Source of the DNA: Candidatus Saccharimonadota bacterium
GTDB taxonomy: Bacteria > Patescibacteriota > Saccharimonadia > Saccharimonadales > UBA4665
NCBI GenBank assembly: GCA_002952755.1
Contig: CP025011.1
Span: 930,001-962,000, forward strand
Length of the DNA: 32,000 nucleotides
Direction of reading: 5' to 3'
Numbering within the stretch: the first letter of the stretch is position 1; the number at the start of each line of letters is the position of its first letter. The notes beneath the pieces were generated by a model. The model did not search any database. It was given only the letters and a program-made list of their open reading frames with translations, and was not told the origin of the DNA. This document shows positions 4 to 5,056 of this stretch, piece by piece. A program made the position numbers and the translations under genes.

Positions 4-609
4 ATGTCCATTCTTCCGCCCGCGCTCACTGATGTTATTGAGGCGCTCGGCACGCTGCCCGGTGTTGGGCCGCGCACTGCCGAACGTTATGCGTATTATT
101 TGGTGCGCAACGACTCAACCAAAGCTCAAAAGTTAGCAAGCGCGCTCCAGGATATGCACGCAGGTGTAGGGTACTGCAAAAAGACCTACGCACTCGTGCC
201 GGCAGGACAGGAGTTGTCTGATCTATACACCGACCCCAGACGCGACAAAACGCTAGTGGCAGTGGTGGCAGAACCATTCGATATCGTCGCGCTTGAAAAA
301 ACGGCTAGCTTTAATGGCACCTACCATGTGCTGGGCGGCCTGGTTTCCCCCATTGATGGTGTGGGGCCGGAAAGCTTACGCATTGCCGAGCTCATCCAAC
401 GAATCGACGACGACGGGGTGCAGGAGATTATCCTCGCTACCAACGCCAGTGTAGAAGGCGAATCAACTGCGCTCTATATCCAAAAACAAATTGGCGACCG
501 GCCAGTGCAAGTCACTCGCCTAGCGCGTGGGCTACCGATAGGCGTCGACCTGGAATACGCTGACCAAATCACGCTCACCCGGGCACTCGAAGGACGCCAA
601 ACGCTCTAG
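4..609 (+). CDS. recR: Recombination protein RecR
   Basis: 201-aa ORF. HhH 'LPGVGPRTAERYAYYL', Toprim-like 'LVAVVAEPFDIVALEKT..YHVLGG..EIILATNASVEGESTALYI', C-terminal 'GLPIGVDLEYADQITL'. Only one of the four canonical Zn-finger Cys is present. Confidence 0.92.
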   Translation: MSILPPALTDVIEALGTLPGVGPRTAERYAYYLVRNDSTKAQKLASALQDMHAGVGYCKKTYALVPAGQELSDLYTDPRRDKTLVAVVAEPFDIVALEKTASFNGTYHVLGGLVSPIDGVGPESLRIAELIQRIDDDGVQEIILATNASVEGESTALYIQKQIGDRPVQVTRLARGLPIGVDLEYADQITLTRALEGRQTL

Positions 610-650
610 TCGTACCGAACCCGCGGGAACCCCGGCCAAAGACAGTCCGG

Positions 651-659
651 TGATATACT
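651..659 (+). promoter_or_regulatory. Extended -10 element TGaTATACT, 6 nt upstream of the helicase ATG (leaderless geometry)
   Basis: TG at 651-652, TATACT at 654-659, ATG at 666. Confidence 0.45.
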
Positions 660-665
660 GACTTT

Positions 666-3600
666 ATGGATCGCCCAAAGGCATTAAGGGCCGATACGAT
701 TCAACTTGCAGAAACAGTTCTGGGTCAACCATATTTTAGTGACCCACTATTAGAAACAGCTCTTCATGCTGACCCCTCTCAATTCCACGAAGATACGTAT
801 AATGCACGGCATCTAATACACACTGCAGTGTTACGGGGTTTAGCGAGCTTGCGCCACGCAGACCGGCTTGCGAGAAATGGTGACTTCGACCCCACGACCT
901 GGCAGCCTTCTGATGGCGACTTAGAGGCGCTGCGCACCCAGCTATCGCCCGCCATTGCACGAATTGCTATTCTCAATAACTTTGATGCTTGGATGGACAG
1001 AACTAAGTATGGCAGCGCCGCAGGCCTCTGGCCCCTGCAACAAGTGGCGATGAATGATACATGGAAAACACTCAAAGAGCTACCCAAAGATTCGCGTGAT
1101 CCAAATAGTAATTTTGGCGTTTCTACCCGCTTTGAACTAGCGACGGGCTTTGGCAAAACCATCCTTGCGTTAAAAACAGCACAGGCTGCGGGTGTCGGCC
1201 AAATTATTGGAGGTTCTGTGCCGGTGAAACCCCGGATGCTATATGTGACGTCCCGAAGGCACCTCATCCGGCAGCTCAAAGAGGACGCCGCGAAGCATAC
1301 TCCTGACATTCCCGTCAGCAAATTATATTGGGTAAATTCGCATGCACCCGACGGCATAGCAGCTACTACCTATCCGGCTCTTATAGAACGGCTCGAACGA
1401 GATGCAGACTTTCTTAATAATTACAGAGGGGGCATTGTTTGCCTTGATGAAGTCCACAACAGCCTAGGCCCCTTATTCCAAGAAAAGATTGAGGATGTAA
1501 AAAAGGACACCTTAGTATTAGCATATACAGCCACGCCCAGCTATGCCGATGGCCGAACTGTAAGAGACCTCTTTCCCCATCTGACATCAGAATACGATAT
1601 ACCTACCTGCATCCAGAATGGTGCAATACGCGGCGTACAGCTACTGGCCATCTCATCCGGCCATGAATTTACAATCGACACGAAAGATCTCAATGACGAT
1701 GACCTTGCTCTAGGAGATTTTAGAACTAGCGATCTATATGCACTTGTCGATAGCCACGATCGCAATACTCAGATTGCCGATATCGCACAAGCCTTCGTAG
1801 AGGGAGGCAGACCGGCTTATATTTCTTGTATACCGGGCAGAAAATGCCGCCACAGCCAATTACTAAAAGGAATATTGGACCAACGGCAGATTGTCGACGC
1901 CGTCACAGGTGAGACACGTCTACTGCGGGCCGAAATCGTCAATTCATACCTCCCCCGTGCTGAGGTAAAAAAGCACAAAGCTGCATTTGAAGCTGGCGAG
2001 CTAGACGTATTGCTTGACGTCGGATTACTAGGAGAAGGAAGCCACTTGAAAGGACTCCTTGCAATGGTTCTGACATCACCGACCACCTCCTCATTGCGGC
2101 ATGTGCAACGCTTTGGTCGTGGACTACATAAGGACGAAGCCCAACCGGCCGTTCCTTACACAGTAGTTGCAGAAATATTTGACAAGCTGACCTACATCGT
2201 AAACGAGTCTGAATTTGTTAAACGACTCCCTGCCCGCTATTTTACAAGTTGGGATATCTTCCAGGATACGGCATTCGAAAATGGTGTTATTTACGAAGCA
2301 ACGGGGAAAAGAACACCCCGGTCTCAGGGCGGAAATGAAGGTCAAATTGTTAAAGGAGTAAAGCTTCCTGCTCAAGTCGTACGCTCCATGCAACAATTCG
2401 ACCCCGAATTACTCCATGCAGCATTTTTTGTTCGGACATCAACAACCGAACTCGGCCCACCGCCTGAAGGGTTGGCGCCAATTGGCGATCTCATTAAAGC
2501 GGCGGGGCGTTACGGAGAAATGACTCCTGAATTTGCACGCAAAACCATTAAACGCAAGCTTGATATCGATAGCACGCTCTATATGGGCACACATCACCCT
2601 GTCTTTTGTGCCCCAAATACTAAGGAAGTCATAGAAATCCTAAAAGAATCACCTATATTAGATAAGCCTCCTGAGGGGTGGAAAAATGCCGCTACAATCG
2701 CAAAGAAGTATGGCCTGTCAGATAGAAAGGTCCGTAAGGCAATAGAGGATCTTGGTCCGACACTACAAAGTAAACCGTTTAGTTCAAAGGGTAGTCGAGA
2801 CAATGAAGGTATTGCGTTTTATCCGCCTGAGGATCAAGAACGCATCTATACGCGCGCCAAGCCACTCGAAGATCTTGCTCCGGGAGATCACACTGCCAAG
2901 AGCATAGCAGATGAATGCGGCACGAACCAAGAAGGAGTCAATGCCTTCTTTAAAAGCCGTGGGCATACTGGCGAACCTAAAAAAGGTTCTAAGGGTATAA
3001 GAACAGCAACGTATTCGGCCCAACAGCGCGCGGCATTCCGGGACTACTTCTACGGTAGAGAAGTACCACCCCGAGCGGCTTTTATCCAAGACCTCGTAGA
3101 GGCTACTGGCTTAACGAGGCATACGGTTGACTACCGACTTAAAGACCAACACCTGGGTGTATATGTGCACAAAGGTGGCGGCAACAATCGTTTTATTGAA
3201 GCAGAAATGGTTCCGAGTATCATCGGTCTGATAGATCCACGCTTTTCCGGGGTGATTGATTTAGATACATATGCCGAACACTACGATCTTGAACCACAAC
3301 AGGTAATGGCTATACTTAACACCTGTCAAGGGGGCAATGAGCATATCCTTGTAGTGGGTAGTGTAAGGCTCTTGAAGCCAGCCATCCTTCCCGAATTAAA
3401 CGAAGCTACTATGAGATATATAAAAGGCAAAGGGCGCTCCCTTGGCGCGAGCTTACAACGAGTAGCATCAGAGACGGTTAAGCAAGTACCAATACCTGCC
3501 GATGCTAAACTCGTACGTATCGAGGGCGCGCTTAGACAACTAGGCTGGTCGATTGAATCACTACTAACGCTCATGCGTGTGGCAAGAATTCCCCGTCAAG

Positions 3601-3911
3601 CTCTCGCCCGGGATCCCGCAACCAATGAACTAATAATGCATAATGAATTTATGCGACGCCTAATAAATCATACTGCACGCTTACAGGAGGCAACGAGCGA
3701 TGACTATACTCTAGCCGAGGCGGCAGAGAAGTTGCATATGAATACATCCGACCTATTTACCTTTGTCACTTCAGAGACCCCCAATCGTGAGATTTTACGT
3801 GTGCTGAGGAAGAACGCCAAGAGCAACTCCCCGCCTACCGCTATCGATGTATATTTATCCGCGCAGTCGATAGTACATGTGGCATATGCAAGGCAAAAAC
3901 CAGGCAACTGA
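666..3911 (+). CDS. SF2 (ResIII/DEAH-type) helicase with a C-terminal array of seven HTH-like modules
   Basis: 1081-aa ORF. Q-like 'LWPLQQ', motif I 'ATGFGKT', motif II 'CLDEVHN', motif III 'YTATPS', motif V 'LLGEGSHL', motif VI 'HVQRFGRGLH'. The C-terminal ~480 aa contains 7 repeats of the pattern h-xx-h-A-xxx-G-h-S/T-xxx-V-xxx-h. Confidence 0.85.
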   Translation: MDRPKALRADTIQLAETVLGQPYFSDPLLETALHADPSQFHEDTYNARHLIHTAVLRGLASLRHADRLARNGDFDPTTWQPSDGDLEALRTQLSPAIARIAILNNFDAWMDRTKYGSAAGLWPLQQVAMNDTWKTLKELPKDSRDPNSNFGVSTRFELATGFGKTILALKTAQAAGVGQIIGGSVPVKPRMLYVTSRRHLIRQLKEDAAKHTPDIPVSKLYWVNSHAPDGIAATTYPALIERLERDADFLNNYRGGIVCLDEVHNSLGPLFQEKIEDVKKDTLVLAYTATPSYADGRTVRDLFPHLTSEYDIPTCIQNGAIRGVQLLAISSGHEFTIDTKDLNDDDLALGDFRTSDLYALVDSHDRNTQIADIAQAFVEGGRPAYISCIPGRKCRHSQLLKGILDQRQIVDAVTGETRLLRAEIVNSYLPRAEVKKHKAAFEAGELDVLLDVGLLGEGSHLKGLLAMVLTSPTTSSLRHVQRFGRGLHKDEAQPAVPYTVVAEIFDKLTYIVNESEFVKRLPARYFTSWDIFQDTAFENGVIYEATGKRTPRSQGGNEGQIVKGVKLPAQVVRSMQQFDPELLHAAFFVRTSTTELGPPPEGLAPIGDLIKAAGRYGEMTPEFARKTIKRKLDIDSTLYMGTHHPVFCAPNTKEVIEILKESPILDKPPEGWKNAATIAKKYGLSDRKVRKAIEDLGPTLQSKPFSSKGSRDNEGIAFYPPEDQERIYTRAKPLEDLAPGDHTAKSIADECGTNQEGVNAFFKSRGHTGEPKKGSKGIRTATYSAQQRAAFRDYFYGREVPPRAAFIQDLVEATGLTRHTVDYRLKDQHLGVYVHKGGGNNRFIEAEMVPSIIGLIDPRFSGVIDLDTYAEHYDLEPQQVMAILNTCQGGNEHILVVGSVRLLKPAILPELNEATMRYIKGKGRSLGASLQRVASETVKQVPIPADAKLVRIEGALRQLGWSIESLLTLMRVARIPRQALARDPATNELIMHNEFMRRLINHTARLQEATSDDYTLAEAAEKLHMNTSDLFTFVTSETPNREILRVLRKNAKSNSPPTAIDVYLSAQSIVHVAYARQKPGN

Positions 3912-3963
3912 TCTTCATCTAACTCGGCCCTACCTGGAGCAAGTACGGTATTTACACTATCTT

Positions 3964-3972
3964 TGCTATACT
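3964..3972 (+). promoter_or_regulatory. Extended -10 element TGcTATACT upstream of the DHH phosphoesterase gene
   Basis: TG 3964-3965, TATACT 3967-3972; ATG at 4013 (about 34-nt leader). Confidence 0.35.
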
Positions 3973-4012
3973 TAAACATAGTAACAACCTGTCAAGATAC
4001 TGATAGAAAATA

Positions 4013-5056
4013 ATGTACCCTGAAGCTTCCGCCATTGCCGAGATAGTAAGCGATGCCCATCGCATCGTTATTCTGCAAGCAGACAATCCGGACGGCGACT
4101 CACTAGGGAGCGCCCTCGCCTTAGAGCAGATTTTGCACGAAATGGGCAAAGACCCCATTCTGTACTGCGGGGCCGATATCCCGTCCTACCTGTCGTATTT
4201 ACCCGGCTGGGACAGGGTAAGCAAAGACATACCGCACAATTTCGACGCCAGTATCATTGTCGATACCAGTGCCGATAGCCTATTCGAAAATTTAGCCAAG
4301 AGCGGACAAAAAGGCTGGATAGCCGCCAAGCGCCTCATTGTCATCGACCACCACCCGGTAGACAACACCATTACTTACGCCAATATTGTCTGCAACAAGC
4401 CGGCTGTCGCCACGGGAGAAATAATCTACGAGCTTGCTCAGCAGCTTGGTTGGCCGCTCAATAACACCGCTAAAGATATGATCGCCACCGCTATATTATC
4501 GGACAGTCTCGGACTCATGACCGACGCCACTACTGCCCGTAGCATTCACATCATCGCCGAGCTAGTAGAGGGCGGCGTGAGTCTACCCACATTGGAAAAT
4601 GCTCGGCGCGACCTCATGCGCAAAAGCCCACAGCTCGTTTCATACAAGGGGGAGCTGTTGCAACGTATCGAATACTGTGCAGACAACCGCATTGCCGCCA
4701 TCACTATTCCCTGGAGCGAAATTGAGCGCTACAGCCCCGAATACAATCCGTCTATGCTGGTGATCGACGACATGCGTAGCACCGTAGGTGTTCAGCTCGC
4801 CATTTCGTTCAAGCTCTATAACGATGGGCATGTAACCGCTAAAATCCGCGCCAACTTTGGGTACCCGGTAGCTGGCGAGCTAGCAAAGCACTTCGGCGGC
4901 GGCGGACATCCCTATGCCAGTGGGTTTAAGATTACCCAATCGCGCCCATTTAACGAAATAAAATCAGAGTGTATCAACGTTGCCGCCAGCCTCCTCGATC
5001 AACTTGAACAGGATAAAATCCATGAGCATGCAACTCTACAACACGCTGACGCATAG
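4013..5056 (+). CDS. nrnA: DHH/DHHA1 phosphoesterase (NrnA-like oligoribonuclease/pAp phosphatase)
   Basis: 347 aa. 'NPDGDSLGS', 'IIVDTS', 'VIDHHP' (DHH motif), DHHA1 'GGGGHPYASG'. Confidence 0.85.
   Translation: MYPEASAIAEIVSDAHRIVILQADNPDGDSLGSALALEQILHEMGKDPILYCGADIPSYLSYLPGWDRVSKDIPHNFDASIIVDTSADSLFENLAKSGQKGWIAAKRLIVIDHHPVDNTITYANIVCNKPAVATGEIIYELAQQLGWPLNNTAKDMIATAILSDSLGLMTDATTARSIHIIAELVEGGVSLPTLENARRDLMRKSPQLVSYKGELLQRIEYCADNRIAAITIPWSEIERYSPEYNPSMLVIDDMRSTVGVQLAISFKLYNDGHVTAKIRANFGYPVAGELAKHFGGGGHPYASGFKITQSRPFNEIKSECINVAASLLDQLEQDKIHEHATLQHADA

Follow-up and report, generated by a model that had tools for sequence, protein, structure and literature searches.

What does a helicase do with a long tail of small, repeated domains? 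The question is raised by P0001, the 1081-residue product of an open reading frame (ORF) at 666..3911 on the plus strand of the window, the 32,000-nucleotide stretch of a Candidatus Saccharimonadota genome that was analysed (assembly GCA_002952755.1, contig CP025011.1, forward-strand positions 930,001 to 962,000). The protein is divided into four parts: an N-terminal domain, a superfamily 2 (SF2) helicase core, a connector and a tail comprising the last 484 residues (aa 598–1081). An earlier note, made from the DNA alone, had described the helicase core and had split the tail by eye into seven modules. Both the ORF and this layout held up: the seven cores that it quoted are all present, at aa 606, 675, 744, 807, 866, 952 and 1016, and the seven module starts that it proposed fall on codon boundaries (Table 1). 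Here, the gene product is proposed to be an accessory, stand-alone DNA motor, in which a ResIII-type SF2 core is joined to seven diverged modules of the MerR/excisionase winged helix-turn-helix (wHTH) type and which would work as an anchored translocase. This reading is considered moderately likely.

The modules have drifted far apart from one another. Pairwise BLASTP among the seven returned nothing significant, with modules 1 and 2 forming the best pair (E 0.35, in register), and as a result repeat detection from the single sequence fails for P0001 and profiles alone work. A hidden Markov model (HMM) of the repeat family to be described below was built iteratively, without P0001, from 293 repeat units. 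On P0001 it finds module 2 at aa 669–731 and module 3 at aa 743–794, with module 4 being marginal (E-values in Table 1). It also recognizes modules 1–4 and 7 of P0003, a protein of 1070 residues that aligns with P0001 from end to end at 29% identity and whose seven modules are collinear with those of P0001.

Further support for the repeats came from hhalign, in which each module, represented by the columns of an alignment of P0001, P0003 and the orthologue from the same-genus genome G015, was compared to a family profile stripped of P0001 and P0003. Modules 1–5 and 7 gave probabilities of 93–99%, whereas sixteen 70-residue windows from the helicase region, which served as controls, did not exceed 8.3%. 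The six align in register across 53–62 of the 62 columns of the family profile. As they stand so far above the controls, these six modules are, on profile comparison, homologous to the repeat family. Module 6 is in register as well, and with a score of just 2.8% it is unproven at the level of sequence. It is probably a seventh, highly diverged module, as suggested by its position and by a low-confidence predicted secondary structure. The internal repetition that the earlier note had put forward for checking is thus not significant by pairwise BLASTP, recovered by profiles in six modules, and indicated in module 6 by position and low-confidence structure only.

To what family do the modules belong? 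A phmmer search of 1.84 billion representative proteins with aa 588–1081 as the query (E <= 1e-3) matched 49 proteins, many with 4–12 matched stretches, which are plainly tandem repeats. Each of these proteins carries 3–12 copies of a unit of approximately 65–72 residues, which recurs with a period of 63–76 residues. The consensus of the family HMM is APEGWLSASGLAKELGVSRKTVKKAIEELGEEGGEYKYKFGRVTTGYSPEQQELIREELE, or in schematic form, APEGW-L.A..LG-vs..Tv.kai..L-wing-YSPE..e.I, and the family is referred to here as PEGW...YSPE after the two most recognizable parts of the repeat. Judged by these profiles, the modules of P0001 belong to this family, modules 2 and 3 by the HMM and modules 1, 4, 5 and 7 by hhalign; module 6 fails by both.

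The copies of Pfam and NCBIfam that were searched have no model for this repeat, and clean members of the family collect many partial, generic HTH matches on the helix-turn-helix part. In their source records, the family proteins are annotated as “superfamily II DNA or RNA helicase”, as “MarR family regulator” or as “UbiE methylase”, or carry no annotation. No description of the repeat or of the helicase-plus-array architecture was found in Pfam, NCBIfam, PHROGs, PADLOC or the literature searched. Homologue searches with a word index, using the whole protein and two alignments, returned the query itself and P0023 only, the index being insensitive to this family. A search for related loci produced one locus from genome contigs (L009, a duplicate of L002) and three helicase-only loci from metagenome contigs.

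The proteins of the family differ in the domains to which their arrays are fused. In 25 of the 49 (P0005, P0010–P0018 and others), the array follows an N-terminal domain of approximately 280 residues and unassigned function, which contains VLVCDEVGN.TFVFD and which has neither a Pfam match nor, with the N-terminus of P0010 as the query, a sequence match in the PDB. A ResIII helicase precedes the array in eight (P0001, P0003, P0004, P0007, P0008, P0022, P0037 and P0040), and the motor of P0004 resembles that of type IV restriction enzymes (PADLOC mREase_IV, 3e-59). In seven proteins (P0002, P0009, P0030, P0034, P0036, P0038 and P0049), the array comes first and is followed by a conserved domain of approximately 170 residues (EIDLFI...GIEYDG..WH). 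In PHROGs, the P0002 copy hits phrog_3339, “homing endonuclease” (E 7e-9); searches with the C-terminus of P0002 gave no Pfam match and no sequence match in the PDB. The domain is a candidate for a nuclease that the array addresses. In P0044, the array is followed by an SNF2 domain and then by a methyltransferase domain, and a protein of genome G038 (locus L007) has an array and then SNF2, in the same order as far as the locus extends. The SNF2 parts of both resemble the defence helicases ZorD, DpdE and DrmD in PADLOC.

The remaining family proteins among the 49 are arrays alone. The architecture of P0001, which the earlier note did not recognize, is real and at the same time not unique to P0001, being one of several in the PEGW...YSPE family. 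Separately, an 8.5-kb Logan contig from SRR22388048 (L013) carries four consecutive array-only genes between 1571 and 8153, with 6, 10, 5 and 7 repeats. With 28 modules in 6.6 kb, it has the appearance of a multigene cluster in which the family has expanded locally.

The fold of the modules was approached by structure prediction. Module 2 was modelled with AlphaFold2 from an alignment of 38 repeat units that came from the window and from loci L013 and L009; module 6 was dropped from this alignment, as MAFFT had misplaced it. The resulting model has a predicted local distance difference test score (pLDDT) of 86.8 and a predicted template modelling score (pTM) of 0.70. Its secondary structure elements are b1 (10–11), a1 (12–19), a2 (23–36), b2 (40–42), b3 (53–56) and a3 (58–68), so that in the model, module 2 has the topology of MerR/excisionase wHTH domains: b1-a1-a2, where a2 is the recognition helix, a b2-b3 wing and then a helix.

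Consistent with this topology, Foldseek searches of the PDB and BFVD with the module 2 model returned mostly MerR-superfamily and excisionase domains, with probabilities of 0.9–1.0 and template modelling (TM) scores of 0.5–0.7, none of them at a significant E-value. The PDB matches include RacA on DNA (probability 0.99), the putative excisionase 2kvv (TM 0.58), HiNmlR and the DNA-binding domain of pSK1 Par (TM 0.70, root mean square deviation 2.5 Å), followed by TnrA, BldC (6amk/6ama), Pukovnik Xis (4j2n), MtaN, CarH and RdfS (8dgl). A few MarR-type winged helices are also among the top PDB matches. The matches in BFVD are phage MerR-type HTH, Excise, AlpA and PrtN proteins, the best having an E-value of 0.006. 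The earlier note had guessed at excisionase/MerR-type wHTH domains, and the guess is well supported at the level of predicted fold and unsupported at that of sequence family: by Pfam and NCBIfam gathering scores, the modules are not members of the MerR or Xis families. Even in clean members of the PEGW...YSPE family, HTH_17 stays below threshold (24–25 bits vs 27) and the NCBIfam ‘excise’ model gives 15 bits.

When the whole tail was modelled with AlphaFold2 from a seven-row alignment, a strand-helix-helix-(hairpin)-helix pattern appeared seven times over. Confidence is good in modules 2 and 3 alone (pLDDT 70–86) and falls to 47–61 in module 6. Foldseek with this model gave nothing significant, the local matches being RacA, TraN, HiNmlR and RdfS. 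TraN of the Enterococcus plasmid pIP501 (4pm3), which we take to consist of two tandem excisionase/MerR-like wHTH domains in one chain that binds double-stranded DNA, is a weak match (E 0.5, probability 0.33–0.38), and it differs from P0001 in having just two domains and no motor.

The motor itself is recognizable. Pfam ResIII (PF04851) matches aa 123–292 at 40.7 bits against a gathering cut-off of 22.5, SWI2_SNF2 matches the core at 35.6 bits, also above its cut-off, and the NCBIfam scan added nothing to the Pfam result. Motifs I to III have their canonical form and align with those of relatives, and the Pfam score and these motifs together place the N-lobe, by sequence, in the ResIII group of SF2. 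In PHROGs, P0001 matches phrog_16, “DNA helicase” (E 3.4e-28). When a profile of P0001, P0003 and the G015 orthologue was compared to the PDB, the closest solved relative was 7clg (E 1.6e-13; deposited as ‘Putative helicase’), which is presumably the structure of the type IV enzyme SauUSI. The HsdR motor of EcoR124I followed (E 6e-10), and Hef/XPB-type ATPases were also matched.

The closest solved relatives of the core are therefore restriction-type motors. The relationship does not extend to the rest of these enzymes, as it is the motor region alone that matches, with PADLOC mREase_IV giving a weak hit on it (E 1.5e-8). Unlike type IV (SauUSI-like) and type I enzymes, P0001 has no nuclease domain or methyl-DNA reader detectable with Pfam or NCBIfam, and there are no HsdM or HsdS genes nearby, so that P0001 falls outside both groups.

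Table 1. Features of the P0001 gene and of its product, in residues of the protein and in positions of the window
Feature	Residues (aa)	Window position	Strand	Support
Whole gene P0001: N-terminal domain, SF2 helicase, connector, predicted seven-module wHTH array		666..3911	+	ORF; collinear with P0003, E 2e-113
N-terminal domain	1-120	666..1025	+	Invariant columns in P0001/P0003/G015 alignment
SF2 ResIII-type helicase/translocase core (predicted)	~121-510	1026..2195	+	Pfam, PHROGs, PDB profile matches, motif alignment
Motif I, TGFGKT	160-165		+	Motif alignment
Motif II, DEVH	261-264		+	Motif alignment
Motif III, TATP	288-291		+	Motif alignment
Motif V, GEGSH	~456-460		+	Motif alignment
Motif VI, QRFGRGLH	481-488		+	Motif alignment
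Connector between helicase and array	511-597	2196..2456	+	Partly conserved with P0003 (alignments)
Module 1 (PPPEG...IGDLIKAAG...)	598-667	2457..2666	+	hhalign 94.2%, E 1e-7; aligns with HMM-positive P0003 module; secondary structure
Module 2, canonical repeat (PPEGW...FYPPEDQERI)	668-736	2667..2873	+	HMM E 9e-16; hhalign 99.1%; pLDDT 86.8; Foldseek
Module 3	737-800	2874..3065	+	HMM E 3e-6; hhalign 98.5%; pLDDT about 70-77 (model 1)
Module 4	801-859	3066..3242	+	HMM E 0.39, marginal; hhalign 97.3%
Module 5: domain at about 865-920 plus ~25-aa linker	860-943	3243..3494	+	hhalign 93.2%, E 3e-7; low model confidence
Module 6 (probable)	944-1008	3495..3689	+	hhalign 2.8%, E 0.016, in register; strand-helix-helix-strand-helix, pLDDT about 47-61
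Module 7	1009-1081	3690..3908	+	hhalign 96.4%, E 1.4e-9; aligns with HMM-positive last P0003 module

How might such a tail serve the motor? DNA is the ligand proposed for the array, as the identifiable fusion partners act on DNA, as helix 2 and the wing are basic, as variation between the repeats of one protein peaks on the HTH and the wing tip (see below), and as the predicted fold is MerR/Xis-like. Across the family, lysine and arginine residues cluster on helix 2 (columns 23–24) and on the wing (columns 37, 39 and 42), and in P0001 the isoelectric point of the tail is 9.0, compared to 6.4 for the helicase part. The seven-module tail probably clamps the P0001 motor to DNA over a long stretch, much as HsdR motors are anchored by a methylase core. 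Here, the array would follow the DNA duplex as a head-to-tail filament with covalent links, with each module presenting its recognition helix and wing to the DNA, and the protein would grip roughly 60–80 bp. Anchored or addressed by the array, the helicase core would then translocate on or remodel the flanking DNA, driven by ATP.

Chains of small domains of this fold class are known on DNA. BldC binds direct repeats of variable number as head-to-tail multimers and distorts the DNA (PMC5859096), and RdfS assembles into helical filaments and recognizes large regions by indirect readout (PMC11963761). P0001 resembles BldC, Xis and RdfS in the predicted fold class of its modules and in the proposed chain along DNA, which in these proteins is built from identical small domains (PMC5859096, PMC11963761). 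It differs from them in that they are free-standing and associate non-covalently, whereas the P0001 chain is covalent, consists of seven unlike modules (3–12 in the family), and is fused to a motor. It differs also in that sequence similarity to the HTH_17 and MerR models is below the Pfam cut-offs.

Several observations weigh against an anchored, DNA-bound motor, and they concern the array, the ATPase and the surroundings of the gene. For the array, no Foldseek E-value for module 2 reaches 0.001 (the best is 0.055 in the PDB and 0.006 in BFVD), and P0001 scores below the gathering threshold of every Pfam HTH model, with HTH_29 and HTH_36 at 13–15 bits over aa 670–696. The whole-tail model, at a pLDDT of 51.6 and a pTM of 0.26, is usable just for the secondary structure pattern and not for the arrangement of the modules, and the alignments behind the predicted structures are thin. 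In addition, the repeats of the family are approximately neutral overall, with a mean net charge of −0.5.

Near neutrality would suit an array that does not read DNA at all and is instead a scaffold for oligomerization or protein docking, or an RNA binder. The winged helices of LOTUS and SelB, for instance, have RNA or helicases as their ligands, and the profile of P0001, P0003 and G015 gave a weak match of the tail to MARF1 in the PDB (6fdl, E 7.5e-4), which we take to be a LOTUS-domain protein. Moreover, the commonest partner in the family, the domain of approximately 280 residues, has no link to DNA. The Lhr helicase, whose modules are canonical winged helices and not of the MerR/Xis type, offers a precedent for such a scaffold. 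As in the predicted architecture of P0001, the SF2 helicase of Lhr has several winged-helix modules in a row behind it, and these are reported to serve quaternary structure, with the five modules of its C-terminal domain nucleating a tetramer (PMC8053096). P0001 has no sequence match to Lhr in Pfam, NCBIfam or the PDB profile search, and its core is instead ResIII/HsdR/SauUSI-like. A scaffold or RNA binder is considered unlikely, as the structural matches of module 2 are mainly to DNA-bound domains of the MerR/Xis type, the partners that can be identified are DNA motors, a methyltransferase and a homing-endonuclease-like domain, and the basic residues lie on the recognition helix and the wing.

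For the ATPase, two motifs are altered. His460 (window 2043–2045) takes the place of an Asp of motif V that is otherwise invariant (EGxD to EGSH), and His488 (window 2127–2129) replaces the last Arg of motif VI (GRxLR to GRGLH), both in P0001 alone when it is compared to 11 aligned relatives. As a result of these two substitutions, the ATPase of P0001 may be weak or lost. P0001 could accordingly be a decaying or neo-functionalized relic, with a crippled ATPase and eroding repeats, which would be at most a passive DNA binder or would be nearing loss. Helicase_C (PF00271) scores 15.6 bits in P0001, below the cut-off of 23.5, whereas the orthologues pass with 32.8 and 31.6 bits; the PEGW and YSPE signatures are gone from most P0001 modules and are better retained in P0003 and the G015 orthologue; and P0001 is a singleton when clustered at 90% identity, all as would be expected of a relic. 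A gene in decay fits less well with a reading frame that is intact over 1081 codons, with no stops or frameshifts, with canonical motifs I, II and III, and with seven modules that remain collinear with those of P0003, and histidine can sometimes serve as a functional replacement. A relic is therefore thought to be improbable, to about the same degree as a scaffold.

If the anchored motor is correct, the array could also be more than an anchor. Variation between repeats, measured within proteins whose repeats remain similar, peaks at columns 8–9, 13–14, 18–20, 23–24 and 27, which form the HTH face, and at columns 42–45, at the tip of the wing. The fixed parts are the PEGW linker, helix 3 (YSPE..I) and the hydrophobic core. 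The pattern raises the idea that PEGW...YSPE arrays are modular, quasi-programmable DNA readers of ultra-small (Patescibacteria-type) bacteria, in which each module would read a few bp through its hypervariable positions. With their 3–12 unlike modules, the arrays would then direct motors, methylases and nucleases of the homing type to sites that are long and specific, by a logic that would make them the winged-helix counterpart of transcription activator-like effector (TALE) arrays. This idea is speculative and is held to be slightly less probable than either the scaffold or the relic.

Is the anchored motor part of the core equipment of the lineage? The genome is a single 1.45-Mb contig, in which P0001 is preceded by recR (4..609) and followed by a DHH (nrnA-like) gene (4013..5056) and then by cysS. 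To the earlier note, this neighbourhood had suggested a core function. RecR was present in 25 of 25 genomes searched and is 79–88% identical within the genus. In 10 genomes across the order, recR and the DHH gene are directly adjacent, with 6–100 nucleotides between them and with cysS next in those loci that are long enough to include it. In the genus itself, the gap ranges from about 0.1 kb to >1.5 kb and holds unrelated genes, whose translations were judged by eye to be NUDIX-like or putatively secreted or membrane-bound. As an observation on the site itself, the interval at window positions 610–4012, when compared to loci L015–L037, is a variable insertion site in the genus, and in other families of the order the two genes adjoin.

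An orthologue that shares the N-terminal domain was found in one of 22 same-genus genomes (G015, E 2e-64), where it is 29% identical to P0001, compared to 80% for RecR. A few other genomes of the genus have more distant helicases, one of them with two detectable repeats (G005, locus L004). The G015 orthologue lies on another contig, near an EamA transporter, a sensor kinase, response regulators and a histidine phosphatase, neighbours that suggest no shared operon. Across the phylum, the repeat profile matches 8 of 400 other genomes sampled, or roughly 2%. The distribution in related genomes, a survey of which the earlier note had called for, is patchy.

P0001 is an accessory gene in a variable spot. 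The core assignment fails because recR and the DHH gene adjoin in relatives and because the orthologue is present in one of 22 same-genus genomes; the gene is neither present nor syntenic in most relatives. That P0001 is nevertheless a core housekeeping helicase, as its flanking by recR, the DHH gene and cysS and the lack of any mobile-element ends or flanking repeats would have it, is very improbable given the differing context of the one orthologue, the far lower conservation than that of RecR and the scarcity of the repeat in the phylum. The surroundings give little help to the anchored motor either, as no conserved partner gene, such as a nuclease or methylase, was seen beside P0001 or the G015 orthologue. 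No direct or inverted repeats were found flanking the insertion, and G+C content is slightly lower across the gene (0.47–0.49) than in its flanks (0.53–0.55). P0001 most likely serves in the handling of foreign or mobile DNA or in the local remodelling of DNA, rather than in housekeeping. That it is the relic of a mobile element is a further possibility.

Ahead of the motor, the N-terminal domain (aa 1–120) has no Pfam or NCBIfam match. It is helical, and P0001 shares it with P0003 and the G015 orthologue, with conserved motifs such as W79.P81 and N104-N105.

What, then, does the locus add? The folds were already known, as were helicases with runs of winged helices. The PEGW...YSPE family and its architectures were not found described in the databases and literature searched, and are new in this sense. 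For this genome, the supposed core function of the gene is corrected to an accessory one. For the family, a fold of the MerR/Xis type seems to have been hard-wired into chains of 3–12 non-identical copies and joined to DNA motors, to a methyltransferase or to a domain resembling a homing endonuclease. If the chains bind DNA, they would represent a new way of recognizing long stretches of DNA and would provide a handle on the unstudied accessory genes of genomes of the Saccharibacteria/Patescibacteria type.

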